This document shows positions 1 to 35,916 of a stretch of 64,000 nt of DNA, in pieces. Numbering within the stretch: the stretch's first letter is position 1; every line of letters begins with the position of its first letter. A program made the translations under genes and the position numbers. Origin of the DNA: Bacteroidota bacterium (lineage in GTDB: Bacteria > Bacteroidota > Ignavibacteria > UBA10030 > UBA8401); contig DATGXR010000208.1 in the NCBI GenBank assembly GCA_035298825.1, forward strand, positions 22,473 through 86,472, written 5' to 3'. A model generated the notes under the pieces. The model saw only the letters and a program-made list of their open reading frames with translations. It was not told where the DNA came from and did no database searches.

Positions 1-1358
1 AGCAGCAACACGTCGCCGGGCTCAAGCGTGACATCGTTCGATCCGTATGATTCATCGCGGAACATGCCGACCGCCATGCCGCTCGATTCGAGCTGCACAA
101 GCTCGCTCGTCTGTGCGCGCCACAGGATGCCCGGCGGATGGCCCGCGTTCACCGAATGCAGCGTCCGCGTCACATCGCTGTACGATGCCATGATGAGCGT
201 CGCGAAAAGTTCACTGTCCTCTGTGTCCTCGCACAACGTGTTGTTCGTTTCGCCGATGAGACATTCAAGATTCGTAAATCGCCGGCTCTCGGAACGGAGG
301 ATGCTCCTGAGCGACGCGAGAATGAACGCCGAGCCGAGTCCGTGTCCAGACACGTCGGCCACGCCAAAGATCCATTCGTTCCTGCCGCATTCGAAGCACG
401 AATACAAATCGCCTCCGACTTCGGCCGCCGGATGACATCGTGCCGCAATATCGAGTGTTGAAAACGCGGGCAGACGCTTCGGCAGAAGACTTTCCTGGAT
501 CTTTCGCGCAAAGTCAAATTCATGCCGCAGGGCTTCGGCCTCGCGAGCTTCCTTGATCAGAAGCGAGGATTTGATCGCGATGCCGAGATAGCCTGCCAGC
601 GCGGTCAGCGAAACACGGTCGCCCGTCGTGAATCTGCCCTCATGATGTTTCGACGCGACAAGCACCGCTCCCATCGATACATTGTCGGCGGCGACGGGCA
701 CGGCAAGCAGTCCAGGCTTGCCGCCCGATGATTCCGACGTCTCGGCATTTTTTTCTTCGACGATGATATGCGTATTCGCGGTGCAGACGTATTCGGCGTA
801 TCCGAGAATCTCGGTATCGCTCAGTCCGCCTGTGTCTCCGATCGAACAACGTTTCACCATGGCTGATATCGCATCGTCAATGAACGCCACAGCGCCGTAT
901 CCCACATCGAGGGTCTGCATCGCTTTCTGCAGCACCGCCATACAGATGCTGTCCTCGTCGAGCACCGAACTGACATCGTTGATGACATCGTACAACACAT
1001 GCAGTTCCTGATATCGCTCAAGGAGCTCGGTCGACAGGTTCTGCATCTCCTCTTCATTCTTGATGATGAAGACGATGACCTCGGTGGTGAAATCGAGCAC
1101 CTGTTCGCGCAACAGTTCGGTGCCCGGCAGCGGCTGGTCCAACGAATACAGATACCACTTTGAACCGTCGCGCAGCACGATCGCCCGTTCCGTTTCCTGC
1201 GCGATCTCGTTCAGGAACGGTTCGCTGCGATCCTCAACCGGTGTCTTCACAATCTCCGTCCGATCGCTGTCAAGCAGACAGAAGGGGATGCCGGTATATC
1301 TCGCGACATTGGTGAGAAATTTCGATACGGCTTCTTGTAATACTGTGCTTGCTATCAT
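1..1358 (-). CDS. PP2C-family serine phosphatase (SpoIIE/RsbU-like) with N-terminal GAF-like domain; partial, 3' end runs off the window start
   Basis: Absent from the ORF track because it has no stop inside the window. Hand translation of the minus strand gives ...CGRNEWIFGVADVSGHGLGSAFILASLRSIL... (the PP2C/SpoIIE GDVSGHG-type motif) and ...NDVTLEPGDVLLL at the window edge. The upstream half (MIASTVLQEAVSKFLTNVARYTGIPFCLLDS...NVSMGAVLVASKHHEGRFTTGDRVSLTALAGYLGIAIKSSLLIKEAREAEALRHEFDFARKIQESLLP) looks like GAF followed by the SpoIIE N-terminal region. The ATG (complement 1358-1356) lies 11 nt after the stop of the upstream gene. Confidence 0.8.
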   Translation of the reverse strand, partial: MIASTVLQEAVSKFLTNVARYTGIPFCLLDSDRTEIVKTPVEDRSEPFLNEIAQETERAIVLRDGSKWYLYSLDQPLPGTELLREQVLDFTTEVIVFIIKNEEEMQNLSTELLERYQELHVLYDVINDVSSVLDEDSICMAVLQKAMQTLDVGYGAVAFIDDAISAMVKRCSIGDTGGLSDTEILGYAEYVCTANTHIIVEEKNAETSESSGGKPGLLAVPVAADNVSMGAVLVASKHHEGRFTTGDRVSLTALAGYLGIAIKSSLLIKEAREAEALRHEFDFARKIQESLLPKRLPAFSTLDIAARCHPAAEVGGDLYSCFECGRNEWIFGVADVSGHGLGSAFILASLRSILRSESRRFTNLECLIGETNNTLCEDTEDSELFATLIMASYSDVTRTLHSVNAGHPPGILWRAQTSELVQLESSGMAVGMFRDESYGSNDVTLEPGDVLL

Positions 1359-1369
1359 CGGGGAATCGG

Positions 1370-3328
1370 TTACATGCGCTGCGATGCCACATCGGGATCG
1401 CGCAGTTGATAAATAATGATCGAATCATCGCTGTAAAAGACGCTCATATCGGCATGTGTCCGGATGTATGTCTCGCACCATTGGCGCGTGCGCCGCATGG
1501 CGTCCTTGTCGAGCGGAGCAATCTCGGAGCTGATTGCGCTGGCGTCTGAATTCTTTTCAATGAAAATAAACACAAGCGCCGTCGGAATGGAGCCGCGCTG
1601 TCCGTGCCGATATGTCGCCGGATCGTACAGCGATGTAAAATATTCATAATCGAGGAAGCGCCCGCGGTTCATTCCAGCCAGTAATATACCGCGATGCGCG
1701 ACAATTGTCCATTGATAGGGAATGTACGTCCGTTCGATCGCATACAGATTTTTGACGAATCCGTCGGGCTCTGCCGTGCTGCCGATTGCTGCGGGTGTTC
1801 CCGGAAACAACAAGATCACCGCGCCCAGCGCGCATATTGCTGCCGATGTTCGCACGCTCACGGCGAGCGCCTGCGAGAGACGGACTTTCGCCATCACCCA
1901 TTCGAACAAATCAAGGATGATTCCTGCGCAGAGTCCGATGGTGACGGCCGCGACGACACTGAGCAGGTATACCGATTGCGCTGCCGGCAGCGTTTCGGGA
2001 AGACCTGCGGCGAAGGGAGGGAGCATCGCAAGAAAGAGCATGCCCGTTGCGCCCCATCCAATCAGATGCATGTGCCAGGATTTCCGCGGACGCGGGATGA
2101 ACGCGACGGCAATGAGTACGACAAACATGCCGGCACAGCACTGGATAAACCATCCCTCGGGTATTGCAGTGATGTCGGCATAGCGATAAAAATGCGTGTC
2201 GTAGAAAATAATCTGAAGCACCGTTTGCATGGACGCATCGGCATAGGCATATGCCCATAACGCGCACGCCAAGAGGCCGAGCACGACAGTCAACATCGCA
2301 TGCAGGGCAAGCGTCCGGCCGCGAAGCCTCGGCAGCGAATGGAGAATGAAGATCGACGAGCACAGAATCGCCGCAGCGGCGAATAAACCAGCGCATCCCA
2401 CAAAAACATTGATCAGCGCGCTTGCCGCGAGTCCCGACAGGGAGGCGAAGAGTCGCAGGGGAGTTCCCTGCGTCACGTAGTTCATCAAAAATGTCAGCGA
2501 CGGGAGGAGAAAAACGAGCGCGAGCGTGAGGCTGTCCGCTTCAATCTGATGGTTCACGGAGATCGGCAGAAACGCATAGGCGCAGCCAAGAACCGCTGTT
2601 CCAATGGCAGCCTCGATGTGGCTCCGCACGGCGGCGAAAATCGTATAATAGATCGACGCGCACAGAAGGAGCGAGGAGATGAGACCGAAATAATGCACGG
2701 CGATTGTGGGATCGACCTGTGAAGCAATGCACAGGGCGCTGATGATTGCAGGCATGCCCATATACATGCGCGACGATCCGAGGTGGACCTGGTTGATCTG
2801 CAGACGCTTCACCTGTTCGAGCGTCTCGTAATATTCAGGCGACAGCGGCGCGGGATGCTCCCAGACGGGGCCGATGCGGATGATGATCGCCGCAATACAG
2901 ATTGCCAGAAACGTGCCGAGATACAACAAGCGGACGATGATCTCACGCTTCCACACGAAGGAGATCGACATGCCGAAGCGCTTCAGAATGGACGGCCGCG
3001 ACACGATTTCGACCCACCGCAGCAACACCGATTTGATCAGCACGAAACCGATATGCTTCCGCCGGTACATCATCCACCACTTGAATCCGACGATCCAGAG
3101 GCTCAGGATGACGATCGAAATATTATCGTTGATCTTCAGCTGCACGAAGATCTGCGTCATGACAATCGTCAGCAATCCCATGAACAGTCCCATCCCGAAT
3201 ACGCGCTCGGCGAGACTCTTCGAAGGGAACGCGGGGAAGAGCATCGCAGGCAGAACGGCGAACAGCATCGCGCATGCGGGCAGCATCCGGAGCATCGAAA
3301 TGATCAATATGGAATGATAGTCGCTCAT
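1370..3328 (-). CDS. large polytopic inner-membrane protein (about 14 or more hydrophobic helices, C-terminal soluble tail of about 110 aa); function unknown, candidate polymerase/export component of the EPS locus
   Basis: 652-aa ORF, almost entirely hydrophobic helices, with an AAGGA Shine-Dalgarno ahead of the ATG at 3328. It is packed 6 nt downstream of the preceding membrane-protein gene in the same operon. I see no recognisable family motif. Confidence 0.55.
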   Translation of the reverse strand: MSDYHSILIISMLRMLPACAMLFAVLPAMLFPAFPSKSLAERVFGMGLFMGLLTIVMTQIFVQLKINDNISIVILSLWIVGFKWWMMYRRKHIGFVLIKSVLLRWVEIVSRPSILKRFGMSISFVWKREIIVRLLYLGTFLAICIAAIIIRIGPVWEHPAPLSPEYYETLEQVKRLQINQVHLGSSRMYMGMPAIISALCIASQVDPTIAVHYFGLISSLLLCASIYYTIFAAVRSHIEAAIGTAVLGCAYAFLPISVNHQIEADSLTLALVFLLPSLTFLMNYVTQGTPLRLFASLSGLAASALINVFVGCAGLFAAAAILCSSIFILHSLPRLRGRTLALHAMLTVVLGLLACALWAYAYADASMQTVLQIIFYDTHFYRYADITAIPEGWFIQCCAGMFVVLIAVAFIPRPRKSWHMHLIGWGATGMLFLAMLPPFAAGLPETLPAAQSVYLLSVVAAVTIGLCAGIILDLFEWVMAKVRLSQALAVSVRTSAAICALGAVILLFPGTPAAIGSTAEPDGFVKNLYAIERTYIPYQWTIVAHRGILLAGMNRGRFLDYEYFTSLYDPATYRHGQRGSIPTALVFIFIEKNSDASAISSEIAPLDKDAMRRTRQWCETYIRTHADMSVFYSDDSIIIYQLRDPDVASQRM

Positions 3329-3334
3329 CGTTCC

Positions 3335-4999
3335 TTAGTAGGCGGCATAATAATAATAATCGAGCTTGTTGAAGAACTGGCGCGCATAGTTCATCGTCAT
3401 CAGCGCAAACACGAGCGAGCCGAACACGAGTCCTCCCACACCGTATTCATAATGGATCCAGCGGCTCAGCAGCAGACTCACCACCACATTGACGCCGAGT
3501 CCGGCGACGATCGAGCGGATCGCGAATTCGGGCCGCGAGAGCGTGAAGAAGAACAGGCAATTGTAGAGTCCGAGTGCGAGAAAAAAGTATCCGAATGCCG
3601 CCGCCCAAAAAACTTGGAATGTCACCACGTTGCTGAAAAATTCGCGTACCTCGCGGATGTAATCGAATCGCTGGAGCGAAAGGACGCCGAAGTACGTCAC
3701 CATGATGCTCAGGACGCCGATTGACAGGATGGCCGCAAGATGCCGCACAAAGAATTTTTTATAGAACATGATATACGCGCCCGCGTCGTCGTTGCGAACG
3801 CTGCGCTGCTGAAAGATCTGATGATATGAAAATTCATGAATCATATACTCGAGCGCGGCCATGGTGAGCACAAGCGAGAGCAGCGCCCAGTCCATGCCAA
3901 GTTCGTACGACGTCCTGAACCAGATGATGTACGGAGGCGGCTCCGGATTCGGCGCGGACCAGCTCACGATGCGGTCCACGAACAGATTGAAAAAGTACAG
4001 GAAGCCGTAAACGAAATACGGCGCCACCGTATACACACGCACGGGCGGATGCGGCAGCCGGCTCGATTTGAGGAACGTATCGGTCCGCTTCGCGCGGCGT
4101 CGCAGGATGAAGATCGTATAGGCGGCCGTGAGCACGATTGCAGTGCTCATGCCTGCCGCATGAGCAACGTAGATACCGAGGCGCGTGTATTCCATTACGA
4201 GATAGACGGGAATCACTCCCGCCATCGTGAAGACAAACACGGCAAATTGTTTGTCGAGCACGTAGGCCAGCGATGAAAACAGCCACAACTCGGACAGAAG
4301 CACGAAATACATGAGACTGATGAGGACGAGCCTGTTGTCGTAATAGGGAATGATGAGGTTCAGCAGGTAGAGCGCGGTGCCTGCAAGCAGAACCACGACA
4401 GTAGCCGCCGCGATGATCTTCAGCGTGATCTGCTGCGCCAGGAAATAATTCTTATGTCCCGCGTACCGTACACCTTCGCGTCCGATGCTTTGGATGAATC
4501 CTCCGGTCACGATGAAACTGAGTATCGTTCCGATTGCGACGACGGTGGCTTGCGCCTCGGTAAAGTCGACCCACGCCCAGAGCGAGTAGCGCAGGAGCAG
4601 CACGGAAGCGATCTGTCCCGCCATCGGAAGCGCAGCCCATGCGCCTTTGAAATAAAACAACAGTGCGCGGGCAAGCTTGTTCTCGCGCTTCGGTGGTTCC
4701 GGCGGTCCCTGTTCGGGCCGCGTGCGTTCGGCATCCACATGGATCAGGTACAGCACTCGTTCGGCGAGTGTGAACAGGTCGTGACGCTGGTACTGCTTGA
4801 TGGCATCGATATCGCGCAGACCGAGACTCTCGAGCGCAGCCGCCACAGCCCAGACGTCGAGCGGCTCGCCGATAAGATTGAAGACTTCGCGCGCCAGATG
4901 CACTTCCTGCTCGGCAAGAAGCGTCGAAAATACGCGCCGGGTCGTCGGGGCGACGCTCTTGATATCGTTCTGTATGTCTGTTGATTCGTCAGCGCTCAT
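3335..4999 (-). CDS. polytopic membrane protein with about 125-aa cytoplasmic N-terminal domain and about 12-13 TM helices; possibly PelG-like / MOP-superfamily polysaccharide exporter
   Basis: 554-aa ORF whose start codon overlaps the stop of the upstream GT4 gene (ATGA at 4996-4999). The TM count and position after PelF-like genes suggest an exporter, but I cannot show PelG homology by eye. Confidence 0.5.
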   Translation of the reverse strand: MSADESTDIQNDIKSVAPTTRRVFSTLLAEQEVHLAREVFNLIGEPLDVWAVAAALESLGLRDIDAIKQYQRHDLFTLAERVLYLIHVDAERTRPEQGPPEPPKRENKLARALLFYFKGAWAALPMAGQIASVLLLRYSLWAWVDFTEAQATVVAIGTILSFIVTGGFIQSIGREGVRYAGHKNYFLAQQITLKIIAAATVVVLLAGTALYLLNLIIPYYDNRLVLISLMYFVLLSELWLFSSLAYVLDKQFAVFVFTMAGVIPVYLVMEYTRLGIYVAHAAGMSTAIVLTAAYTIFILRRRAKRTDTFLKSSRLPHPPVRVYTVAPYFVYGFLYFFNLFVDRIVSWSAPNPEPPPYIIWFRTSYELGMDWALLSLVLTMAALEYMIHEFSYHQIFQQRSVRNDDAGAYIMFYKKFFVRHLAAILSIGVLSIMVTYFGVLSLQRFDYIREVREFFSNVVTFQVFWAAAFGYFFLALGLYNCLFFFTLSRPEFAIRSIVAGLGVNVVVSLLLSRWIHYEYGVGGLVFGSLVFALMTMNYARQFFNKLDYYYYAAY

Positions 5000-6501
5000 G
5001 CGTGTATCTGATTGTCGGCTGCAAGCCGTTCGTACGAAACTAAATATTCATTCATTGCGAGTGTTGTCCTGTATCGAAGCAGCACGCGGTCGCGCGAGAG
5101 CTTGCCGAGTCCCTGTCTGAGCTCGTGGTCGCGCAGCAGCGTCACAACGCCTTCGGCAAGACCCGCCGCATCGCGGGGACGCGCCAGAAGACCATAGGCC
5201 TCGACCGCTTCGCGCACTCCGCCTACGTCGGTCGCAACGACGGGCCGGGCGCATGCCATCGATTCGATGACGGTATAGGGAAATCCCTCGGAGATGCTCG
5301 AGAGAATACTGATGTCGCCCTCGTTATACACTTCGTGCGGCTTCGGATGAAACCCGCCGAAGATAAAATTTTTCTCAAGCGCATAATTACGGATGAGCGC
5401 CATGCATCGCTCCGTGTACGGCAGGTCCACATCCGCCGGACCGTAGACGATATATTGCACGTCCGGTATTTCCTTCCGCACCTCGGCACATGAATGGACC
5501 ATCGTTTCGATGTCCTTCAGCGGAAAGATGCGAGCCACGGCGACGACAGTCGGGCGATTCAGCGTCTTTTCCGGCTTCTGACGCGGCGTGAAGATTCCCG
5601 GATCGATGCCGTTGTAGATCGTCCTGATCCTGTCGCGCGATCCGCCGAATCGAAGCTCCCAGCGTTGATTGTATTCGCACACCGGCGAGATCTGATCGGC
5701 GCACGTATAGATCATGCGTGTCGCGTACGACGAGAGATTCAAGATGAACCGTTTCGCGAATCGGCTCAGCTTCTCGCTTGCAAGCGCGATATACCGTTCG
5801 CGGATGAAGATGCCATGATCCGTCACGACGATTCGCGCGCCGAATTCGTACTTCGCCGCCACTACCGCGAGACAGGAGGGACTGGCCAGCGTTGCATGGG
5901 CGATATCCACTCTGGGCAGTGCCACGCTCAACGGAAGCATGAAACTATACAGCCAGCGCAGCGCTGTCGTCACATCGAATAGGCTCGGCTGCTCTTCAGA
6001 CAAGTCACCCCATTGGCCGGCAGTCCTGAGCACCATCGCCCTGAACGTTTCCCACGTCAGACTCGAACGGAATGTCGTTTTATATTCATACTGTCTGAAA
6101 TATTTATAGAGCCGAAAAATTACCTCGGGACGCGGCGGCCGGCGGTTCGGATCGACGATGTCTTCGAGAAACTCCTCGAAGACGGGAATGAATTTTTCGC
6201 TGATGACCTCGTCCGTCGTTTCGGTCCTGTTTGTATAGATGTCGGCGAACGATCGTTCCGGCTGAATGTATTCTGACGGTTCCTCGCTGCCCCACATCGG
6301 CACCTGGCGCAGATACCGCACGTTCGACGGAAGCACATATTTCATCGTCGAGATGGGAGCGCCCGTTACCGCAATGATTGAAAAATGCACGGACTTCAAT
6401 TCGCGGATCAAACTGTCGCACCATGTGCTGACGCCGCCGCCGACGTACGGATACGTGCCTTCGGTGATGAGCAGTACGTTCAACTGGCGTTGTGCATTCA
6501 T
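4996..6501 (-). CDS. PelF-like glycosyltransferase (DUF3492 N-terminal domain + GT4 C-terminal domain)
   Basis: 501 aa. The N-terminus LNVLLITEGTYPYVGGGVSTWCDSLIRELKSVHFSIIAV matches the PelF/DUF3492 signature (P. aeruginosa PelF has CLLLEGTWPYVRGGVSSW). The C-terminal half carries a GT4 retaining-GT motif, ...ISILSSISEGFPYTVIESMACARPVVATDVGGVRE... Confidence 0.8.
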   Translation of the reverse strand: MNAQRQLNVLLITEGTYPYVGGGVSTWCDSLIRELKSVHFSIIAVTGAPISTMKYVLPSNVRYLRQVPMWGSEEPSEYIQPERSFADIYTNRTETTDEVISEKFIPVFEEFLEDIVDPNRRPPRPEVIFRLYKYFRQYEYKTTFRSSLTWETFRAMVLRTAGQWGDLSEEQPSLFDVTTALRWLYSFMLPLSVALPRVDIAHATLASPSCLAVVAAKYEFGARIVVTDHGIFIRERYIALASEKLSRFAKRFILNLSSYATRMIYTCADQISPVCEYNQRWELRFGGSRDRIRTIYNGIDPGIFTPRQKPEKTLNRPTVVAVARIFPLKDIETMVHSCAEVRKEIPDVQYIVYGPADVDLPYTERCMALIRNYALEKNFIFGGFHPKPHEVYNEGDISILSSISEGFPYTVIESMACARPVVATDVGGVREAVEAYGLLARPRDAAGLAEGVVTLLRDHELRQGLGKLSRDRVLLRYRTTLAMNEYLVSYERLAADNQIHA

Positions 6502-6505
6502 GAGA

Positions 6506-7708
6506 TCAATTCGATAATAATGTGCCGTACAATTGCCGATAGGTGCCGATCATCGCTTCGAGCGAATGTGTGCTCTCGACGATCGCCCTGCCCGCCTGCG
6601 AGCATGCCTCATAAAGCGGCCGGTCGGCAAGCAGTGACATCACGGCGCGCGCGCAGGCCGCATGATCGGCAGGGGGACAAAGAATTCCTGCATGGGCGAA
6701 GCCGGCGGGCGCAACGATCTCTGACACTCCGCCCACATCCGTTGCCACAACGGGAATGCCATACGACATCGCTTCAAGCAGTACAAGCGGCTGCGCTTCG
6801 CTTGCACTCGTGAGCACGGCCACATCGATCGACGGATAGAGGGCATGCACATCGGCCTCACCCGTAAACGAAAATTTTTTTAATCCGAGCGAATCGGCCA
6901 GTCGGACGCACTCCGCATAATACGCCGGATCGTGATGCGTGGGCCCGATGACGGACCATCGGGATTCGGGCATCGTCGTCTGCGCAACGGCGCATGCGCG
7001 TATGAACGTTGTAATATCCTTGAGCGGCGACACGCGTCCCACGAGCGCGATGTGTGCAGCTCCAGTTCTCGTTGTGTATGCCGAGATCTGCCGATCGATC
7101 GCCACGCCGTTTGGAATCACACGCGCCTTCCTCTCGCTTGCACCGAGTGCGATCTGGCTTCGACGGTTAAAATCGCAGACCGTCGTGATCGCATCGGCCG
7201 CCTCGTACGCATCGAGTGCGAGCGAGCGAAACGTTTCGCTCCAGCTTTCCCACGTGCGGCCGAGCGCGAGCGGTCCCGCTTCGGTTTCGACGATCTTGAA
7301 TCCGCATTCGAGTTCGCCGATGCCCAGTTCAGCCTCGCGCCAGTAGAGTCCGTGTTCAGTCAGCAGCATTGGTGCGCGGCGGCGCCGTTTCAGCGCCGTG
7401 CCGAGGTATCCCGCAAATCCCGTCGAAAGGGGATGATACATGCGCGCAACCGGCACCTGATCGAGCAGCGTATCGAGTCCAATTGTGAGCGGAGTGCCAT
7501 GCTCGGGTGCATTGAGCGAGATATCGACAACAGAACGGATATTCGACGGAACTCTGTAGCGTTTCTCTCGCGGTCTCTCTCCATAATACAAATGCGCCAC
7601 GCAAAACGTCAGTTCACTCAATCCGTTGACAAGCGCATCGACCCACGCTGCCACTCCTCCCGTTTTGTACGGGTACGTTCCTTCAAGCACGAGGCAGATA
7701 TCGGTCAT
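6506..7708 (-). CDS. second PelF-like GT4 glycosyltransferase (shorter paralogue)
   Basis: 400 aa. The N-terminus ICLVLEGTYPYKTGGVAAWVDALVNGLSELTFCV carries the same DUF3492-type motif, followed by a GT4 EX7E-type region (...LTSASEAQPLVLLEAMSYGIPVVATDVGGVSE...). The start overlaps the stop of the upstream kinase gene (ATGA at 7705-7708). Confidence 0.75.
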   Translation of the reverse strand: MTDICLVLEGTYPYKTGGVAAWVDALVNGLSELTFCVAHLYYGERPREKRYRVPSNIRSVVDISLNAPEHGTPLTIGLDTLLDQVPVARMYHPLSTGFAGYLGTALKRRRRAPMLLTEHGLYWREAELGIGELECGFKIVETEAGPLALGRTWESWSETFRSLALDAYEAADAITTVCDFNRRSQIALGASERKARVIPNGVAIDRQISAYTTRTGAAHIALVGRVSPLKDITTFIRACAVAQTTMPESRWSVIGPTHHDPAYYAECVRLADSLGLKKFSFTGEADVHALYPSIDVAVLTSASEAQPLVLLEAMSYGIPVVATDVGGVSEIVAPAGFAHAGILCPPADHAACARAVMSLLADRPLYEACSQAGRAIVESTHSLEAMIGTYRQLYGTLLSN

Positions 7709-8118
7709 GTCGACTGGGCCTGTTTGGTGGAGATGGACATTTTCAATTCGGTGCCAACCGGCTGCTGGATGAGCTGCACATCGTCCATCAGCGAACGGAT
7801 GAGGTAGATGCCGTATCCGCCTTCGCTTGCGATGTCGGTATCGGGCGAATCATATTGATCCATTCGCATCCCGATGCCGTAATCGCGAATGTTCAGTCGA
7901 ATTGTCGATCCATCGATTTCAAGCGACACATCCACGCGTCCCTCACGCGCCGGTTTGTATCCATGGACGATGCAGTTGGTCACCGCCTCGCTCGACGCAA
8001 GCAGTACACGATTCACGATGTCGGCATGGATGCCCGTGTCGATGAGCGTATCCGCGATCCAATTTCGGATCTCCTTTACTTTTTCAGGCGTGCAGTGGAA
8101 CGATGACTGTGCGTTCAT
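7705..8118 (-). CDS. anti-sigma regulatory factor / partner-switching serine kinase (RsbW/SpoIIAB-like, HATPase_c_2)
   Basis: 137 aa with ...SEAVTNCIVHGY...VDVSLEIDGSTIRLNIRDYGIGM...GGYGIYLIRSLMDDV, the N-box and G-box pattern of GHKL-type anti-sigma kinases. It sits inside the EPS operon. Confidence 0.75.
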   Translation of the reverse strand: MNAQSSFHCTPEKVKEIRNWIADTLIDTGIHADIVNRVLLASSEAVTNCIVHGYKPAREGRVDVSLEIDGSTIRLNIRDYGIGMRMDQYDSPDTDIASEGGYGIYLIRSLMDDVQLIQQPVGTELKMSISTKQAQST

Positions 8119-8199
8119 GCCGTTTTTTCTTTCGGTGATTGTAAAGATCGTGCGATGCTGTCCGCGATCGAAGGCGGTCGGTACACCGCGGTCCGTTAC

Positions 8200-9051
8200 T
8201 TATCGTGCCGGCAGGGTATTCAATTCGATCGTGCTGACAAACGATGAAAATCCATGGCTCCGTGACTGGTTGCGCGCATATGCGCGCGTCAGCGAATCGC
8301 CCTCAGGCGCATAATCGATCGCAAAAATCCTGAGTCCGTACGAGGTATGGAGCGCGGCGAGTTCGGCGCAGCGCGTCTCCGATGCGTCCTTCCGCACCGG
8401 GATGTACGTTTTATCCTTAAAATTATATGTGGCGAATACACTTTCAACAACAATGCCGTCGATCGCATCAGCGACTTCGGGAGCAAGAAACGTTCCATTG
8501 TTCATGAGTATGATCTTGTCGGGAAACTCCTCACGCATTGCATGGATGAGCTCGACCACGCCCGGCCGCAGCATCGGATAGAGGTCGGGTGATGCCACAT
8601 CCACCATATCGAGAAAAATTCCCTTGAATGATTTTCCAAAAATCACGGGAAGCACTTGGTCGATCAGCAGGGAATGCCAGCCGGATTTTGAGGCGTCGAC
8701 GTAAAAATGATCGGGCCAATTCGGATTCGCTCCCAACATCCATTCGGGACGGATATCCTTGTAATACCATCTGTACGATTCGGCCTCGCCGATGTTGATG
8801 TACGCGACGGGAATGATACCGCGTGCCGAGAGCGAATCGGCTTCATGCCTGCGGCTCTGGTCGGGATCGATGATCATCATCTGATACGGCAGCATCCGTG
8901 CGAGGCTGTAGTCGCCGGAAAACTGGACTCCGAAGTGATCGACAGAAGTAAGAGCGGTGCGTGGATTCGGATGACCCGGGCCGGACGATTCGCGACAGGC
9001 AAACGCAGTGATCAAACAAAGCAACAGCAGCGAAGCGAAGAGTGTGCGCAT
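8200..9051 (-). CDS. GH114-like glycoside hydrolase lipoprotein (PelA hydrolase-domain-like / TM1410 family; putative endo-alpha-1,4-polygalactosaminidase)
   Basis: Signal peptide plus lipobox (MRTLFASLLLLCLITAFAC) followed by a TIM-barrel-like region with ...GIIPVAYINIGEAESYRWYY...GIFLDMVDV...ILMNNGTFL...IDGIVVESVF, reminiscent of the GH114 family. Start taken at the internal ATG (9051); the ORF-track start is 9099. Confidence 0.6.
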   Translation of the reverse strand: MRTLFASLLLLCLITAFACRESSGPGHPNPRTALTSVDHFGVQFSGDYSLARMLPYQMMIIDPDQSRRHEADSLSARGIIPVAYINIGEAESYRWYYKDIRPEWMLGANPNWPDHFYVDASKSGWHSLLIDQVLPVIFGKSFKGIFLDMVDVASPDLYPMLRPGVVELIHAMREEFPDKIILMNNGTFLAPEVADAIDGIVVESVFATYNFKDKTYIPVRKDASETRCAELAALHTSYGLRIFAIDYAPEGDSLTRAYARNQSRSHGFSSFVSTIELNTLPAR

Positions 9052-9196
9052 TGATTGGTGATCGATTTTTCGTGTTATAATAGAGAATTTTCTAATCAAA
9101 AAATATACGATAAAACGTACTTACATACAATTGATCTCTGTATAATGAGGCAGAAAACGCCGAAAAAAATCCCGTCATCGGCCGAGGCTTCGCATG

Positions 9197-10663
9197 TCAA
9201 TTCGATCTGGAGATCCGGGCTGAAAGCGAGCCGACGGCGATCGTCGTCATCGAACCGATCACAGTGTGCCAGGTAAAATCGATCTTCGTCCAAAACACAA
9301 CATACACCATCACGAGAATGCCGCAGAGAAATCCGATCACGGCATCGCGCTGATCGGTTCGATGAAACAGGATTCCGAGAAAGAAGGTCCCGAGCAGTCC
9401 GCCGTATGTGAACGAGGCGATCTTCAGACCGATCTCGACAACCGGATTTGTCGTGTCGGTGAAGAGCATCGCTCCGCCGATGAGCACCACGCCCCAGAAG
9501 AGCGTGAACACCTTCGACCAGGTCATTTCTGTTTTGGCGTCGAGAGCTTTGCCTTTGGCGGTCATCCTGAACAGATCGAGGAATGTCGAAGACGCGAGCG
9601 AGTTGATCGATGACGACAGCGTTCCCATGGCCGATGCCAGCACGCCCGCCACAAGCAGTCCGGCCAGTCCCGTGGGCAGATTCTCGACGATGAATTTCGG
9701 AAAGATTTCATCGCTCGAATGAAGTCCCAATTGCTGAAAGGGGACGCCATGATAGAAGGCGAACAGGCAGAGGCCGAGGATGAGGAAAAACGCGAATTGC
9801 AGCACGATCATCGTCGCATCGAGCATCAATGCCCGCTGGCTGTCCCATTGTTTTCTGCATCCGAGCAGACGCTGTACGAGCAACTGATCGGTGCCGTGCG
9901 AGGCCATTGTGAGAAACGTGCCGCCCACGAATCCGCCGATGAGCGTATAGGGCGTGGTGAAGAATGAAAGGAGGTCTGAGGGCGCGCTCAGGTTGAAGAT
10001 CTCGAATTTGTTCGATCCGCCGGCGGTCGCATAGGCGAAGACGTCGGCCCAGCCGTTGGGAAGGTGCTGGATGATCAGGACCATCGAAGCCGCGGCGCCC
10101 GTCAGATAAATGCACATCTGCACCACATCCATCGCCACGACGGCCTTCAATCCGCCGACGTACGTATAGGCGAGCGTAAACGCGCCGATGAGAAGAATGC
10201 TGTGCGCGTACGAGAGTCCGGTGACCAGATGCACGGGGATGGCGGTGGCGAAGAGCCTCACGCCCGAGGCGAGCACGCGTGTGACGATGAAGACGCTCGA
10301 TGTAAATGTGCGCAGCGGAATTCCATAGCGCTTGCCGAGGAAATCGTATGCTGTTTCGAGATTGCCCTTGTAATAGGCCGGGATGAAGATGACGCTCACA
10401 AGCAGTCTGCCGATGAAATACCCGAAAACAAGCTGGAGAAAATGCATGTCGCTTCGATAGGCGAGGCCGGGGATGCTGATGAATGTGAGCGTGCTTGTTT
10501 CGCTTGCGACGATCGAGAATCCGACCGACCACCAGGACATCGATTTTCCGCCGAGAAAATAGTCACGCGTCGTTTGTTGCCGGCCTGCGATGATGGCGCC
10601 GATGACGGTGACGCCGAGGAGATAGATGATGACGATAACGTAATCGAGGAAGGCAAAACCCAT
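9197..10663 (-). CDS. sodium:solute symporter family (SSF/SLC5-like) transporter
   Basis: About 490 aa with 13-14 TM helices and SSF-like patterns (...GGKSMSWWSVGFSIVASETSTLTFISIPGLAY...). Start chosen at MGFAFLDYVIVIIY, which has an AAGGA Shine-Dalgarno 7 nt upstream. Confidence 0.8.
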   Translation of the reverse strand: MGFAFLDYVIVIIYLLGVTVIGAIIAGRQQTTRDYFLGGKSMSWWSVGFSIVASETSTLTFISIPGLAYRSDMHFLQLVFGYFIGRLLVSVIFIPAYYKGNLETAYDFLGKRYGIPLRTFTSSVFIVTRVLASGVRLFATAIPVHLVTGLSYAHSILLIGAFTLAYTYVGGLKAVVAMDVVQMCIYLTGAAASMVLIIQHLPNGWADVFAYATAGGSNKFEIFNLSAPSDLLSFFTTPYTLIGGFVGGTFLTMASHGTDQLLVQRLLGCRKQWDSQRALMLDATMIVLQFAFFLILGLCLFAFYHGVPFQQLGLHSSDEIFPKFIVENLPTGLAGLLVAGVLASAMGTLSSSINSLASSTFLDLFRMTAKGKALDAKTEMTWSKVFTLFWGVVLIGGAMLFTDTTNPVVEIGLKIASFTYGGLLGTFFLGILFHRTDQRDAVIGFLCGILVMVYVVFWTKIDFTWHTVIGSMTTIAVGSLSARISRSN

Positions 10664-10754
10664 GGACGATCCTTCTTCAGATGTCGGTGGCCGCATGTGA
10701 AACGGCGCTTGCGAGAGTGCGCCGTCTCACACGGGAAAAGTGCATGTGCAGAAG

Positions 10755-11087
10755 TCAGGCTTTTTCGGCTTTTGCAACAGAGTCGAAGACGGGGAAGACC
10801 TTGTCGAGCTGTGAGATCTTAAGCAGCGACAGAACTTTTTTATGCACGCCCACAAGCTTGACTTTGCCTCCTTGCTGGCGCATGAGGCGTTCGGCGATCA
10901 GCAGAGCACTGAGACCCGAGCTGTCGCAAAATTCGACGTCGCCCAAATCTACGATCAGTGTTTTGACTGTGGGACGGCACAAGAGGATGAACTCGCCTTT
11001 CAATTCCGGAGAGACGGACACATCCAGCTTCCGTTCCTTGACGACGAGCACGACACTGTTCGCATTCTTGGTCACCTCAAACTTCAT
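10755..11087 (-). CDS. STAS-domain anti-sigma-factor antagonist (SpoIIAA/RsbV-like)
   Basis: 110-aa product MKFEVTKNANSVVLVVKERKLDVSVSPELKGEFILL...LIVDLGDVEFCDSSGLSALLIAERLMRQQGGKVKLVGV is a classic STAS fold, with the DSSGL motif holding the phosphorylatable Ser. The ORF track extends upstream from a TTG; start chosen at the internal ATG. Confidence 0.75.
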   Translation of the reverse strand: MKFEVTKNANSVVLVVKERKLDVSVSPELKGEFILLCRPTVKTLIVDLGDVEFCDSSGLSALLIAERLMRQQGGKVKLVGVHKKVLSLLKISQLDKVFPVFDSVAKAEKA

Positions 11088-11106
11088 ACTTCCTCCGAAT
11101 GTGTAT

Positions 11107-11649
11107 TTAAAACATTGCAAGCGTGTTGACCAGCTGCTCGTATTGAAGTTTCGGCATACGCGCCGATGCTGTCTGCAGCTGTAGATTGTAGACCGTTTCG
11201 CTCTGCGGTGAACCGAATCCCGCTTTGAGCGGCACATCGAGCTGAGCGCAGACTGATGCGGCCAGCGGAGTGATGCCAAGATTGAGGTCGACGATCACGT
11301 CGTATGTCCGTTCGCGCAGCCGGGTGATGAGCGAGGCCTTCGGCAAAAAGAAATATCCGATCTGATCCTCGTGCACGGGCACCATCATGCATTGGTGAAG
11401 CTTGCCGGCGATCGAGTGCGAGGTCTCCGTCGACGAAAGGATCGTCATTGAATTCCCCTTAAACTGCATTTGAGCGTGCTGCACGACGGAGAGTGCGATT
11501 GAACGATGCGCTTCGTCGAACGGCATAATGAACAAGGCCGAGCGCGCCTTCGTATAGATGCCCCGAAAATTTATTTGTTTCGCGCGCAACCGGCGTCCCT
11601 GCACGCGCGCGATCATCATGCCGATATTTTTTCTCAAGTCTTCAAACAT
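11107..11649 (-). CDS. hypothetical protein (weak resemblance to the C-terminal half of GT9 heptosyltransferase-like proteins)
   Basis: 180 aa from the internal ATG (ORF track 11107..11703). The segment DVIVDLNLGITPLAASVCAQLDVPLKAGFG loosely resembles the GT9 ...G.MHLAAALGVP...FG... region. No confident family assignment. Confidence 0.4.
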   Translation of the reverse strand: MFEDLRKNIGMMIARVQGRRLRAKQINFRGIYTKARSALFIMPFDEAHRSIALSVVQHAQMQFKGNSMTILSSTETSHSIAGKLHQCMMVPVHEDQIGYFFLPKASLITRLRERTYDVIVDLNLGITPLAASVCAQLDVPLKAGFGSPQSETVYNLQLQTASARMPKLQYEQLVNTLAMF

Positions 11650-11772
11650 AACTGGAATTAAATTGCAAAAGGTTTGAATGAAAAGCAAGAACGGCCGGCT
11701 CAAAAAAATTACGGATCACGTATGTGTGCGACAGTTCGCGAGAGCAACCGCCCATGCGCTTCTGTGCGATGC

Positions 11773-14735
<2,963 letters not shown>

Positions 14736-14747: not shown

Positions 14748-16937
14748 TTATCCTAATTGCATGGTCAGAACCGCCTGCAGCTTCGATGCGAGCTCGTGCT
14801 CGACATACGGCTTGCGCAGAAATCCGTCGACATTCTTGACGAACGATTCATTCGTCGTTATCGCGTCGTTGTATCCGCTCGAGATGAGAATCCTGCCCGG
14901 AAATTTTTTTCGCTTGATCTTCTGGAACAATTTTTCTCCATTCATCTGCGGCATCGTCATATCGAGGATCATCAGATCGAAGCTGCGCTCGCCGAGCAGC
15001 TCGAGGGCCTCCTTGCCGCTCTGCACCGAATGCGGCGCATACCCGAGGTCCTTCAACATCGTCGAGAGCGTATAGCAGATCATCGCCTCATCGTCGACGA
15101 TGAGCACCGTCTCGCCGTTGCCTTTCGAAATTTTCACCGCGCTGTCGGACGGTTGTGCCGCCTGCTCCCAGAGCAGCGGAAACGTCAGCGCAAATGTCGA
15201 TCCCTTTCCCGGAGTCGATGTCACAGAGACGGATCCGTTATGCGATTTCATGACGCCGTACACGACGGAAAGCCCGAGCCCCGTTCCTTTGCCGCTTTCC
15301 TTCGTGGTATAGAACGGCTCGAAGATGTGCTGCTTCACGCTGACGTCCATGCCCGTGCCCGTGTCCGTTACAGAGAGCGTGACAGTCCGATCGTGCGGAT
15401 TCACGGCGGTTGAAATGGCGATGCTGCCGCCGTCGGGCATCGCATCACGTGCGTTGAGCAGGATGTTCAGGATGGATTGCTGAATCTGTCCCTCGTCTCC
15501 GTTGATGAACACCGGCATCGGTTCATCCTGCCGCGCGATCGTTACCGAGTCGGGGACGCCCGTCTCGAACAGCGCGAGTGTTTCGTCAAGAATGAGATGA
15601 AGGTCGACCGTGTGGAGTTCGGCCGGAGTGCGCCGCGCAAACGTCAGCAGCTGCGTGGTGAGCTTTGCTCCGCGCTGTGCCGCCAGTGTGATGATCTCGA
15701 TGAACGGAAAGAGCTTGTGCTGCGTCGTGACGCGCCGCTTCATGATGGCGGCGGCGTTGCCGATGGACGTCAGCAGGTTGTTGAAATCGTGCGCCACGCC
15801 GCCCGCAAGGTTGCCGATGCTGTCGATCTTCTGCGCCTGAATGATCTTCTCCTCGAACTTCTTCTTCTCGGTGATGTCGCGCACCACGCATCGGAGCGAG
15901 ACCGGCACTCCGATCTCGTTATAGACGAATGATGAATTCACGCTCACATCGATGCGTGTGCCGTCGCGCCGGATCATCTGATGTTCCTCGTCGCGCGCCT
16001 CGCGCTCGAGCTCGAACGTGCATCGGATGAATTCCTGTACCTTCGCATGCTGGTCCGACGGATAAATGCGCGTGAGATGCGTATTGACGATCTCCTGCTT
16101 GTCGTACCCGAGTGTGGCGGCCTCGGTCTGATTGCAGCCGATGATCGTTCCGCTGCGGTCGATCAGATGGTACATATCGGGGGAGTGTTCGAACAGATCG
16201 GCGTACTGCTCCTGAGATTTTTTGAGTTGAGAAAACATATGCGCGTTGTTGAGCGCGACGTTGATCTGATTGCCGAAGGCGGAGATAAGATTGATCTTGT
16301 TCTGCGAAAAAAAATCGGATGAGCTGCTTGCGAGGATGATGGCGCCGGCGCACCGGTCCGCCGTGCGCAGCGGCACAACGACCCAGGACGCGATGCGATG
16401 GGCGCCGACCTGCGGATGAAGCGGCGGCATCTCGTCCCGGCGGGTCTCCTTGCTCGTGTGGATCGACTGCAGCCACTGCAGCGACGCCTGCGAGTGCAGC
16501 GAGCCGGCGTCGAAAAACGTCGTGAGCACGCCGCTCGAGCGTTTCAGCACGAGCGTTTCGTTCTCGATGATGTAGAGCCATCCGTATTCGTTTTTAAGAA
16601 GACCGGTGACGGTGGTGAGCACGGTCTCGAAGATCGTTCCGAGTTCCATCATCCGGTTGACGGTCTGGGCCACTGTGTTCAACGCAACAAGCTCGCAGTT
16701 CTGCTCTTCAAACTGACGGCCGTACTTGAGTGAAAAATATACACCGGTGAATCCGATCACACCGACAGTCACGATGCTGATGAACTCGAAGAATCCGATT
16801 GTTTTATTCAGCACGATGTTGGCGCTGATGATCGTCACCATCATGACCACGACGCCGGTCGACGCGACGATTTGAGCCTGTTCGACGAGGCCGAGGTGGA
16901 ATGAAAACGCACGCAGACGGTGAAAAATTTTTTTCAT
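14748..16937 (-). CDS. hybrid sensor histidine kinase (TM region, GAF, PAS, HisKA, HATPase_c, C-terminal receiver)
   Basis: H-box ...GGVAHDFNNLLTSI..., N- and G-boxes ...DTGTGMD...GTGLGLSVVYGVM..., and a C-terminal REC ...VLIVDDEAMI...LMILDMTMPQMNGEKL.... Start placed at MKKIFHRL (16937), which leaves a 64-nt gap to the upstream response-regulator gene; the ORF-track start at 17039 would overlap that gene by 38 nt. Confidence 0.8.
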   Translation of the reverse strand: MKKIFHRLRAFSFHLGLVEQAQIVASTGVVVMMVTIISANIVLNKTIGFFEFISIVTVGVIGFTGVYFSLKYGRQFEEQNCELVALNTVAQTVNRMMELGTIFETVLTTVTGLLKNEYGWLYIIENETLVLKRSSGVLTTFFDAGSLHSQASLQWLQSIHTSKETRRDEMPPLHPQVGAHRIASWVVVPLRTADRCAGAIILASSSSDFFSQNKINLISAFGNQINVALNNAHMFSQLKKSQEQYADLFEHSPDMYHLIDRSGTIIGCNQTEAATLGYDKQEIVNTHLTRIYPSDQHAKVQEFIRCTFELEREARDEEHQMIRRDGTRIDVSVNSSFVYNEIGVPVSLRCVVRDITEKKKFEEKIIQAQKIDSIGNLAGGVAHDFNNLLTSIGNAAAIMKRRVTTQHKLFPFIEIITLAAQRGAKLTTQLLTFARRTPAELHTVDLHLILDETLALFETGVPDSVTIARQDEPMPVFINGDEGQIQQSILNILLNARDAMPDGGSIAISTAVNPHDRTVTLSVTDTGTGMDVSVKQHIFEPFYTTKESGKGTGLGLSVVYGVMKSHNGSVSVTSTPGKGSTFALTFPLLWEQAAQPSDSAVKISKGNGETVLIVDDEAMICYTLSTMLKDLGYAPHSVQSGKEALELLGERSFDLMILDMTMPQMNGEKLFQKIKRKKFPGRILISSGYNDAITTNESFVKNVDGFLRKPYVEHELASKLQAVLTMQLG

Positions 16938-17001
16938 AAAGACAGTAGAAAAAAAGAGAGAGGATGTGAAACGGTCACGAAGATGGCGCCCGGCCCGCCG
17001 C

Positions 17002-18288
17002 TTACAAACGATGGGGGGCAAGCCGCAACTGCACTTCATGAGACCGCTTGATCTTGCCTTCGATCGTCGCCAGGAACAATTCGAGATCGACCGGCTTCAG
17101 GAAGTACCCGTCCGCTCCCATTTGCATGCCCGTTCGCTGCACGGCTTCCTGCGCCATGCCGCTTAAAAAGAGGAAGGGACAATGGAAAAATTTTTCCATT
17201 GCACGGAACTTTTCATAGAACGCAAATCCGCTGATGTTCGGTTTCGAGAAATTGACGTCGCACACGACGATATCCGGAGTGAGCGACTCGAGCGTCTTCA
17301 ACGCATCTTCGCATGTGGGAACCGCAACACAGTACAGACCCGCATCGGTCAGCTGCCTGCCCGCCAATTCGAGGAATTCGGTGTCGTCGTCTACAAGCAG
17401 CACTGTGCCCACCGAGCGGAGCGACTGGAGCAGACGAAACACGCGTCCTTCGATCTGCAGATGTTCCTGGTCCGAGATCCTGAACTGCCGTCGAAGATCA
17501 TCGAAGTTCGTGATGCCTTTCTTCCAGGCATGTTCGATCGCATTCACATAGGCGTCGAAACGGACCTCGCGCTCGATTGAAAGATGCTCCTCGTTCGTAA
17601 TTGCAAACGAGTCGCGCATTGCGCGCACACGTTCGCGATCCTCATCCGTGATCACGCCATTCTCCCAGACCTCGCTGAGCAGCGTCTTGTAGGCCTGGAG
17701 GAGTGCCGGTGTATGCTTCATAAAATCGAACGGCGGTTGAAGCGGAACCTCGAGTGTGACCGGCGTCTGGGCCGCCGCAGTATCAACGGGAGACGGAGGG
17801 GGAGCCTCGTGTGTCAACGTTTCCGACACCGAATCATACGGCGCACTCTCGTCTTGTTCCGCGTTTGTCGCCGGGACCGCATCCGTCACAGGCGCCGCAT
17901 CAGTCGCGGGCTCCGGTTCGCGCATCTGCGGAAGTTCCTGCGACTGAGGTTCAGTTGATTCCGTTTCGGCCGGCTGAGGCTCCTGGGGCGCGGCGGATTC
18001 CGATTCGACAGCTTGAGCCTTCGCGGACTCCAGTTCCATTACGGCCTTCGCGTTTTCCGCCGCAAGTTTTTCGGCATGCGCCTTGGCGGCGATCTGCGAT
18101 TCTTTCAGCGAAAGAATGCGCTCCTGATACGCGCGCGCGTACACATTACGGGGATCGAATTCGAAAACCCGGCTGATGGCGGCGAGAGCAAGATCGAGGT
18201 TGCCATCTTTGATCGACTTATCCGCCGATCGGAGAAGTTCGCTCACCGCTCTTTGATTCTCTGGTGTCATATGTCTGTGGTCTGCCAT
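17002..18288 (-). CDS. atypical response regulator: N-terminal TPR-like segment, long Glu/Pro-rich acidic linker, two tandem ~30-aa repeats, C-terminal receiver (REC) domain
   Basis: The REC domain is at the C-terminus (...VLLVDDDTEFLELAGRQLTDAGLYCVAVPTCEDALKTLESLTPDIVVCDVNFSKPNISGF...LKP...), not the N-terminus. Internal repeats: ITDEDRERVRAMRDSFAITNEEHLSIEREV and ITNFDDLRRQFRISDQEHLQIEGRV. Confidence 0.7.
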   Translation of the reverse strand: MADHRHMTPENQRAVSELLRSADKSIKDGNLDLALAAISRVFEFDPRNVYARAYQERILSLKESQIAAKAHAEKLAAENAKAVMELESAKAQAVESESAAPQEPQPAETESTEPQSQELPQMREPEPATDAAPVTDAVPATNAEQDESAPYDSVSETLTHEAPPPSPVDTAAAQTPVTLEVPLQPPFDFMKHTPALLQAYKTLLSEVWENGVITDEDRERVRAMRDSFAITNEEHLSIEREVRFDAYVNAIEHAWKKGITNFDDLRRQFRISDQEHLQIEGRVFRLLQSLRSVGTVLLVDDDTEFLELAGRQLTDAGLYCVAVPTCEDALKTLESLTPDIVVCDVNFSKPNISGFAFYEKFRAMEKFFHCPFLFLSGMAQEAVQRTGMQMGADGYFLKPVDLELFLATIEGKIKRSHEVQLRLAPHRL

Positions 18289-35226: not shown

Positions 35227-35916
35227 TTATGATGCGGATGCGAATCTATATCCGATTCTCGATTCCGTGACGATGCGCCGGGGAAGAGCCGGATCGGCTT
35301 CGATTTTTTTACGGAGCTGGGCGATGTAGACACGCAGATACTGCCGCTCTTCGTCGAATGCAGGGCCCCAGATTTTCTGAAGAATAAAATTATGCGTGAG
35401 CACTCGCCCGGCGTTCTGCACGAACAGCGCAAGAATCGAATATTCGGTCGATGTGAGTTTCACCGGCTCGCCGCTGAGCGTGACGGTTCGCGACGAGAGG
35501 TCGATGTGAAGATCGCCGAATGTGTATACGGGTTCGACGTGAGGGGATTGATTGTGACGCATTGCCATGCGCAGCCGGGCAAGCAGCTCTCCGGTCCTGA
35601 ACGGTTTCACGAGATAATCGTCGGCGCCGGCATCGATGCAGGCGATGATGCCGTCCTCGGCGTTCCGCGCAGAGAGGATCACGACCGGAATCGTCGACCA
35701 TTCGCGCAGCTGCTTCAGCACGTCGCACCCTTCGATGTCGGGCAGTCCCAGATCGAGAATGATGAGATCGGGCATCTGCATCGATGCCTGCGTCAATCCG
35801 TCTTTCCCCGTTTCGGCGAGGACCACGCGATATCCGTTCGATTCGAGTGTCATTTGCAGCAGACGGCGAATCTGTTGTTCGTCGTCGACGACCAATATCA
35901 ATGGCTCCGTGCTCAT
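35227..35916 (-). CDS. kdpE: KDP operon response regulator KdpE (OmpR family)
   Basis: LILVVDDEQQIRRLL...LIILDLGLPD...YLVKPF..., with a winged-helix C-terminus ...RVYIAQLRKKIE...IVTESRIGYRF. Confidence 0.9.
   Translation of the reverse strand: MSTEPLILVVDDEQQIRRLLQMTLESNGYRVVLAETGKDGLTQASMQMPDLIILDLGLPDIEGCDVLKQLREWSTIPVVILSARNAEDGIIACIDAGADDYLVKPFRTGELLARLRMAMRHNQSPHVEPVYTFGDLHIDLSSRTVTLSGEPVKLTSTEYSILALFVQNAGRVLTHNFILQKIWGPAFDEERQYLRVYIAQLRKKIEADPALPRRIVTESRIGYRFASAS

Follow-up and report, generated by a model that had tools for sequence, protein, structure and literature searches.

The 64,000-nt stretch of Bacteroidota DNA analyzed here (contig DATGXR010000208.1, positions 22,473 to 86,472; called the window below) opens inside a gene on the minus strand that encodes a phosphatase with a GAF and a PP2C domain (window positions 1 to 1358). 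Our best explanation, which we consider likely when taken as a whole, is that this protein is a soluble cytoplasmic PPM enzyme of the RsbU/SpoIIE subfamily, composed of a small N-terminal domain, a long helix, a GAF domain, a helical linker, and the PP2C domain, and that it serves as the phosphatase in a partner-switching module together with an RsbW-like kinase (7705 to 8118) and a single-domain STAS protein. The same explanation places the module within a Pel-like polysaccharide cluster that lacks PelD and contains a GH114 glycosidase, two PelF proteins, PelG, an orphan protein with 13 transmembrane (TM) segments and, in relatives, a DUF2194-TPR protein resembling PelA/PelB.

The open reading frame (ORF) of the phosphatase begins with ATG at 1358-1356 and stays open to base 1, giving 452 codons; the start is backed by an MIAST N terminus that is conserved across orthologs. 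Its 3' end was recovered from the Logan contig L001, which differs from the window by 1 mismatch over the 1358 nt of overlap within the gene and encodes the full-length protein P0001 of 518 aa. The window holds the 5' 87% of the gene (aa 1 to 452) and is short of 66 C-terminal residues, within the range of 60 to 80 estimated by an earlier reading of this DNA from its letters alone (the sequence-only reading). That reading was also right that the gene runs off the window and is separated by 11 nt (1359 to 1369) from an upstream gene for a membrane protein; in L001, the same spacer is 9 nt. All sequence available beyond the window edge derives from L001 and amounts to 198 nt of gene and 106 nt after its stop codon. 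A search of JGI metagenomes with an exact 24-nt sequence from the 3' end of the gene returned no match, and an exact-sequence lookup of the neighboring 652-aa membrane protein, aimed at extending the contig, returned no record.

The catalytic domain was assigned by profile, fold, and residues. The Pfam model SpoIIE (PF07228) matches aa 327 to 452 with an E value of 2e-29, covering profile positions 3 to 127 of 192; both the window fragment (103 bits) and full-length P0001 (163 bits) exceed its cut-off of 25. Among PP2C models, the SpoIIE type alone matches; the eukaryote-like models do not. About the first 70% of the domain lies in the window (aa 297 to 452; 3 to 470, minus strand). Loss of the metal-binding Asp residues of PP2C enzymes, which the sequence-only reading had named as evidence that would speak against it, was not observed. 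Five of them are invariant across 28 aligned orthologs (about 513 aa each), an alignment on which all invariance counts given here and an AlphaFold2 model are based: D317 (GGD), D335 (ADVxGHG), D456 (TDG), and D508/D509 (DDxT). The codons of Asp317 (408-410) and Asp335 (354-356) are inside the window, and D456, D508, and D509 belong to the C-terminal part supplied by P0001. The model has a mean pLDDT (predicted local distance difference test) of 85, with values of about 81 to 96 for the PP2C domain. In a Foldseek search, the catalytic half of the model matched Rv1364c, RssB, SpoIIE, and SiaA with E values of about 1e-13 and target TM-scores up to 0.86. From these residues and this fold, the phosphatase looks catalytically competent.

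The part upstream of the catalytic domain consists of four segments, all read from the minus strand. The first, an N-terminal domain of one helix and four strands (aa 1 to 80; 1119 to 1358; pLDDT of about 75 to 90), appears only in this family: when aa 1 to 132 were used as a phmmer query against 1.84 billion representatives, the region was confined to family phosphatases of 513 to 526 aa, and the N-terminal 125 to 134 aa of four orthologs gave only noise against Pfam at E values up to 10. Further phmmer matches (P0126, P0129, and P0130) were set aside as multi-stretch alignments to unrelated proteins, and a PocR-like identity was dropped because Pfam gave noise only. A long, highly conserved helix (aa 81 to 133; 960 to 1118; modeled as helical over aa 81 to 129; ELLERYQELHVLYDVI) connects this domain to the GAF domain (aa 134 to 262; 573 to 959). 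The GAF domain is in turn joined to the PP2C domain by a helical linker (aa 263 to 296; 471 to 572; AREAEALRHEFDFARKIQESLLP), for which the model has a helix over aa 245 to 291 and which aligns to the linker of RssB. Mean column conservation was 0.50 for aa 1 to 80, 0.74 for the long helix, 0.59 for the GAF domain, 0.77 for the linker, and 0.69 for the PP2C domain (aa 297 to 518). The two helices are therefore the best-conserved noncatalytic parts, with the linker exceeding every other segment. This fits the linker-mediated activation model of PPM phosphatases, which has been described and proposed for RsbU, RsbP, and the tandem-GAF protein RsbZ (PMC12143880).

The GAF domain at aa 134 to 262 is of the sensor type. 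All 28 orthologs match the Pfam model GAF_2 at E values of 0.001 or less (best, 5e-12), and three sequences (L009, P0127, and P0128) pass curated GAF cut-offs. In a comparison of the family profile with solved structures, it matched GAF-A of DevS (5e-10) and GAF-B of PDE2A (8e-6), the fold is that of a GAF domain, and all 28 family members keep the domain, with core residues that are invariant among them. Ortholog and profile evidence is clear enough to establish that the domain is real, despite the sub-threshold scores of the window protein itself. The sequence-only reading had described the domain as N-terminal; the domain stood, its position did not, because it is preceded by the 80-aa domain and a helix of about 50 residues. 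A heme-sensor function of the DevS/DosT type, considered because of the similarity to DevS GAF-A, was rejected, as no invariant or near-invariant His occurs at aa 134 to 262 in the 28-ortholog alignment.

The phosphatase is encoded together with the other parts of a partner switch. In the 5' to 3' direction of the minus strand, the operon encodes a STAS protein, a sodium:solute symporter (SSF), a GH114 glycosidase, a kinase, PelF paralog 1, PelF paralog 2, a PelG-like exporter, the 13-TM protein, and the phosphatase, with gaps of -4, 4, -4, 6, and 11 nt from the kinase to the phosphatase. The RsbW/SpoIIAB-like serine kinase of 137 aa matches HATPase_c_2 (E value of 9e-27; 94 bits) and, aligned with RsbW (6m36_A), has an intact N-box (SEAVTNCIVHGY), G1 box (DYGIG), and G2 box (GGYG). 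The STAS protein of 110 aa (10755 to 11087, minus strand; Pfam STAS, E value of 5e-16) carries Ser56 in a DSSG motif. This motif aligns with the DSTG/DSSG segment of RsbV and SpoIIAA, in which their phosphorylated Ser56/Ser58 lies, and Ser56 is thus predicted to be phosphorylatable. The assignment of the phosphatase to a partner switch, made earlier from the letters alone, was supported by the SpoIIE match and by these co-operonic kinase and STAS genes.

The Pel-like character of the cluster is evident from the presence of PelF, PelG, and a PelA-type hydrolase in the window. PelF paralog 1 (6506 to 7708) and paralog 2 (4996 to 6501), both GT4 glycosyltransferases on the minus strand, score 286 and 167 bits, respectively, against a cut-off of 100 for NCBIfam PelF; paralog 2 also contains DUF3492. 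The PelG-like exporter (3335 to 4999, minus strand) reaches 44 bits against a Pfam PelG cut-off of 29. The GH114 glycosidase, similar to the hydrolase of PelA (8200 to 9099, minus strand; E value of 1e-22; 80.7 bits), has a signal-like hydrophobic N terminus. No ORF in the operon matched PelD (DUF4118-GAF-degenerate GGDEF) or PelE with Pfam and NCBIfam models. The 652-aa protein encoded directly upstream of the phosphatase (1370 to 3328, minus strand; TAA at 1372-1370) was confirmed to be polytopic and membrane bound, its C-terminal domain being soluble and the remainder containing about 13 hydrophobic segments. Neither Pfam nor NCBIfam has a model that matches it, and a homolog search of 5.8 billion sequences yielded only 5 homologs, all unannotated and none with a Pfam domain. 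This orphan could stand in for PelD/PelE. The stop codon of the kinase gene and the start codon of PelF paralog 1 overlap by 4 nt in the window (7705-7708) as well as in L002 (1138-1141) and L005 (2581-2584), an arrangement suggesting that translation of the kinase is coupled to that of this one of the two paralogs. In L005, from an Ignavibacteriales metagenome-assembled genome (MAG), GH114 and the RsbW-like kinase form one 383-aa ORF (1433-2584), either a true fusion or a lost stop codon. Its use as a "Rosetta stone" for the kinase target was rejected, since GH114 carries an export signal (its N terminus is signal- or lipoprotein-like) and the ORF occurs in one MAG only.

Eleven distinct orthologous loci were available (L002/L010, L003/L004, L005/L006, L007/L008, L009, L011, L012, L013, L014/L019, L089, and L090), from records labeled as Ignavibacteriae, Acidobacteriota, Bacteroidota, Cytophagia, and Actinomycetota MAGs. 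The full-length phosphatase family was found in this cluster context only, and the gene for the 652-aa protein directly precedes the phosphatase gene wherever the upstream gene is visible. In all 11 loci, more genes follow the phosphatase on the same strand, and no terminator-like element was found in the 106 nt after its stop codon in L001. The tail of L001 ends T rich and resembles the sequence just before the start of the next gene in the closest relative, L089; the intergenic alignment behind the phosphatase was too divergent for a shared element to be recognized. Judged from this synteny, the phosphatase is probably an internal gene of the cluster and does not close the operon as the sequence-only reading had it. 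Scans for promoters and terminators over positions 1 to 12000 and the L001 tail found nothing above shuffled expectation.

The gene that follows encodes a stand-alone receiver of 124 to 126 aa, located 13 to 105 nt after the phosphatase in 10 of the 11 loci, with L013 as the only exception. Further downstream, relatives encode a GAF-HD-GYP protein (about 500 aa), another STAS protein, which is conserved (about 113 aa; DSS(C/G) motif), and a DUF2194-TPR protein of about 1320 aa; in Gram-positive bacteria, DUF2194 is characteristic of PelA (PMC7890745). Directly after the phosphatase gene of L009 come those for the receiver and the GAF-HD-GYP protein (11588-13577), as is also the case in L004, L005, L007, L011, L012, and L089. 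The L009 receiver keeps the acceptor Asp, Thr, and Lys, and the HD and GYP motifs of its HD-GYP protein are intact. By sequence, the two genes link two-component and cyclic di-GMP (c-di-GMP) signaling to the cluster. Distant GAF-PP2C homologs without exopolysaccharide genes (L015, L016, L018, L020, L030, and L066) still keep the downstream receiver, which points to a functional phosphatase-receiver pair.

The window STAS gene is a different one. The pair of STAS and SSF genes at the head of the operon, in which the STAS gene lies 58 nt upstream of the SSF gene (9197 to 10696, minus strand; Pfam SSF, E value of 3e-40), recurs in L009 (258-2125), is absent from L005, L007, and L012, and is an accessory of the closest clade, distinct from the conserved downstream STAS gene. 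The closest clade therefore has two STAS paralogs. The L090 locus has a cut, unannotated gene (2-1348) upstream of GH114, in the position of the symporter. The window thus does encode a STAS protein with Ser56, as the sequence-only reading assumed for the partner switch, but the STAS protein conserved in the cluster is the downstream one of relatives, and the conserved partner probably lies beyond the window edge. Perhaps the kinase and phosphatase act on the upstream protein as an additional substrate, or the symporter may be a STAS-regulated transporter.

Outside the operon, the window carries ligA and rodZ-like genes upstream, and an ORF of 198 aa, a putative gene without a family match, lies between ligA and the STAS gene (11107-11703, minus strand). 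Upstream of the rodZ-like and ligA genes, a gene for a GAF-PAS-HisKA-HATPase-REC hybrid kinase of 763 aa overlaps one for a 428-aa protein with a C-terminal receiver (14748-18288, minus strand); the hybrid kinase is a possible partner of the cluster's receiver. The housekeeping surroundings (25646-29164, 35227-43055, 49506-50450, and 50701-53828) comprise metH, a kdpABC-kdpDE operon, an hpnCDE-like group of two squalene/phytoene-synthase genes and an amine oxidase gene, and a gene for a protein with a type IX secretion system (T9SS) C-terminal sorting domain. The latter fits an organism of the FCB group (Ignavibacteriota/Bacteroidota-like).

These parts suggest how the module might work. The kinase would phosphorylate the STAS protein at its Ser and thereby inactivate it. 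With its sensory half in the "on" state, the phosphatase would strip the phosphate from the STAS protein, the signal passing along the two strongly conserved helices to the switch region of the PP2C domain, as proposed for RsbU, RsbP, and RsbZ. Unphosphorylated STAS protein would then titrate the kinase off a target or act directly on the synthase or on the neighboring HD-GYP enzyme, and polysaccharide output would be altered after transcription, as with SypA/SypE. Since no sigma factor gene was found beside the cluster, either among the annotated ORFs of the window or in the gene tables returned for the orthologous loci, it is reasonable to suppose that polysaccharide synthesis is controlled posttranslationally, for which SypA/SypE (PMC10120452) and HenR/All4160 (PMC13555669) are precedents. 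Two proteins are candidate targets of the output: PelF paralog 1, with a start codon that overlaps the stop codon of the kinase gene, and the HD-GYP enzyme, encoded next to the conserved STAS protein. A bolder version, to which we attach little confidence, holds that the Pel synthase of an FCB/Acidobacteriota lineage lost PelD and is gated by the switch instead: the kinase would sequester or inhibit PelF paralog 1 in the manner of an anti-sigma factor, STAS protein dephosphorylated by the phosphatase would free it, and the receiver and GAF-HD-GYP protein would feed in two-component and c-di-GMP signals.

Where the signal enters is the point on which alternatives differ most. The sequence-only reading had made the GAF domain a sensor of a small ligand, a cyclic nucleotide monophosphate (cNMP) or, by analogy with PelD, c-di-GMP, and had cast the phosphatase, placed last in the operon, as the input through which a signal reaches polysaccharide production. 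Signaling by cNMP does exist in these organisms: the window encodes a cNMP_binding-GAF-HisKA-HATPase histidine kinase (53817-55481, minus strand), and a gene for a CHASE2 adenylate/guanylate cyclase abuts the cluster end in L009 (18596-20800, minus strand). The domain itself argues otherwise. The NKFDE motif is the signature of cNMP-binding GAF domains of the PDE2/5/6 and CyaB type. As a sequence signature, and not a direct readout of binding, it is incomplete here, with only K237, F243, and D247 present and a consensus among the 28 orthologs of (A/S)-K-x5-F-x3-D-R, in which N and E are replaced. The pocket loop (aa 195 to 216) is the least conserved and least confidently modeled part of the domain, with a mean conservation of 0.37 and pLDDT below 50, and the phosphatase is last in no ortholog locus. 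As to PelD, the phosphatase does not have the DUF4118 TM region, GAF, and degenerate GGDEF with I-site that make up a PelD-type c-di-GMP receptor, and its GAF domain shows no special similarity to PelD. In PelD itself, moreover, the c-di-GMP site is the I-site of the degenerate GGDEF domain and not the GAF domain (PMC7890745), so the analogy carries no weight. Nothing in the sequence points to a defined small ligand for the GAF domain, and we regard control of this kind as unlikely. A stronger contender, possible though not our preference, is that the GAF and N-terminal domains serve mainly as a scaffold for dimerization and docking, and that the receiver encoded downstream, after phosphorylation by a histidine kinase, binds the phosphatase or kinase and flips the switch, as in a SypE-like kinase-REC-PP2C system split into genes. 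The position of the receiver in 10 of the 11 loci, its retention in distant homologs, its intact acceptor residues, the variable pocket loop, the likeness of the L001 tail to the sequence ahead of the L089 receiver, and the regulation of SypE via its own receiver domain (PMC10120452) all favor this arrangement. Against it, the receiver gene is known only from the loci of relatives, the sequence at this place in the genome itself being limited to the 106 nt of L001; L013 has no receiver; and a GAF domain kept with its invariant core residues in 28 of 28 members fits a sensor as well as a scaffold. The receiver and a ligand-binding GAF domain are also mutually compatible.

The nature of the output is open to two further readings. 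In a canonical partner switch, the RsbW-like protein would be the anti-sigma factor for a sigma factor encoded elsewhere, so that transcription is controlled, perhaps that of this very operon. The best family matches of the kinase are indeed the anti-sigma factors SpoIIAB and RsbW, and trios of STAS, RsbW, and RsbU classically govern sigma factors, but the lack of a sigma factor gene among the annotated window ORFs and in the gene tables returned for the orthologous loci, the conserved 4-nt overlap that would couple the kinase to PelF paralog 1, and documented sigma-independent switches (PMC10120452, PMC13555669, PMC8457831) make this reading improbable to us. We consider two other roles very improbable, namely that of an RssB-like pseudo-phosphatase or adaptor and that of an enzyme whose substrate is not STAS but, for instance, PelF, PelG, or the 13-TM protein: Pseudomonas aeruginosa RssB is the top sequence match among solved structures, but all metal-binding Asp residues are invariant in the orthologs, and every complete locus contains a cognate kinase and STAS protein.

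We therefore retain the phosphatase arm of a Pel-associated partner switch as the preferred explanation, with several points that count against it. The window protein remains below the Pfam cut-offs for GAF_2 (23.8 versus 28.6 bits; E value of 5e-5), GAF (19.2 versus 22.4 bits), and GAF_3 (19.2 versus 27 bits), so that the profile comparison that the sequence-only reading had proposed supported SpoIIE in the window protein itself and the GAF domain at the level of the family. Polar conservation in the GAF pocket is slight, D247 being the only invariant polar residue there. The C-terminal third of the catalytic domain was taken from the near-identical contig L001 and not from the window. The clade has two STAS paralogs, of which the conserved one probably lies outside the window. 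The data show the gene, its domains, catalytic residues, fold, and synteny, and the intact motifs of kinase and STAS protein; the substrate is assigned only from family membership and synteny, and, like the substrate, the direction of control and the nature of the signal are ones that we infer. With respect to the signal, the receiver downstream is at least as likely an entry point as the GAF domain, and the GAF-HD-GYP protein is an equally plausible input. The proposed link to polysaccharide through partner switching gains from the co-operonic PelF, PelG, and GH114 genes, and the role given to the phosphatase shrinks to one of several possible inputs.

Pel is among the most widespread biofilm polysaccharides, and its known posttranslational control is exerted by binding of c-di-GMP to PelD. 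A conserved Pel-like cluster without PelD that encodes a complete switch of kinase, STAS protein, and phosphatase, together with a receiver and an HD-GYP protein, suggests another way to gate the synthase. If a switch does replace PelD, this would represent a new regulation of a widespread biofilm machine and would join the few cases (Syp and Hep) in which partner switching acts on polysaccharide enzymes instead of sigma factors. The value of the phosphatase is as a handle on this system.

The phosphatase itself is routine, as GAF-linker-PPM architectures are common and documented (RsbZ, OsaC, and InterPro examples; PMC12143880). Like RsbZ of Clostridioides difficile, OsaC of Streptomyces coelicolor, and RsbU/RsbP of Bacillus subtilis, the latter two serving as mechanistic models, it combines one or more N-terminal sensors and a helical linker with a SpoIIE-type PP2C domain, which in those proteins dephosphorylates a STAS protein (PMC12143880) and is predicted to do so here. 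RsbZ has tandem GAF domains, and aa 1 to 296 of the model align with tandem-GAF structures over 340 to 400 columns; in place of a recognizable first GAF domain, however, the present protein starts with a truncated 80-aa fold specific to its family. The output here is also apparently not sigma-B, and the gene resides inside a polysaccharide cluster.

Partner switches in polysaccharide loci are already known. In Vibrio fischeri, the syp switch controls biofilm below the level of transcription, and it shares with the present system a STAS protein (SypA; Ser56) set by an RsbW-like kinase and a PP2C phosphatase, genes within a polysaccharide locus, and involvement of a receiver (PMC10120452). SypE is, however, a single kinase-REC-PP2C polypeptide without GAF, whereas kinase, phosphatase and, in relatives, receiver are separate genes here, the phosphatase has a GAF and a novel N-terminal domain, and the machinery is Pel-like instead of Syp. 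In the Anabaena HenR/All4160/Alr3423 system, the phosphorylation state of a STAS domain depends on a Ser kinase and a PP2C phosphatase, and this domain has direct control over a glycosyltransferase required for a polysaccharide layer (PMC13555669). There, STAS is fused to the glycosyltransferase, and single clustering is not shown; here, STAS is free-standing and the parts are clustered. The SiaABCD and HsbR/HsbA/HsbD systems of P. aeruginosa use a PP2C phosphatase, a kinase, and a STAS-like protein to control a c-di-GMP enzyme and biofilm (PMC8457831, PMC6482189). The PP2C domain of SiaA is a close structural match (6k4e; TM-score of 0.86), and the adjoining STAS and HD-GYP genes of relatives recall Sia/Hsb. 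SiaA is membrane anchored and targets a diguanylate cyclase, whereas the neighbor here is a phosphodiesterase-type HD-GYP enzyme, whose link to STAS is speculative.

With canonical, PelD-containing Pel systems (P. aeruginosa and Bacillus cereus), the cluster shares PelF, PelG, and GH114 and, in relatives, a PelA-like DUF2194 protein whose TPR repeats resemble those of PelB (PMC7890745). PelD and PelE were not detected; instead, it has two PelF paralogs, the orphan 13-TM protein, a partner switch, a receiver, and an intact HD-GYP protein, and its GAF domain is unrelated to that of PelD in context and function. An open literature search of incomplete coverage retrieved no paper joining Pel components with partner-switch terms. 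Against this background, a Pel-like cluster without PelD/PelE that carries a split, SypE-like switch and an HD-GYP protein appears mildly novel.

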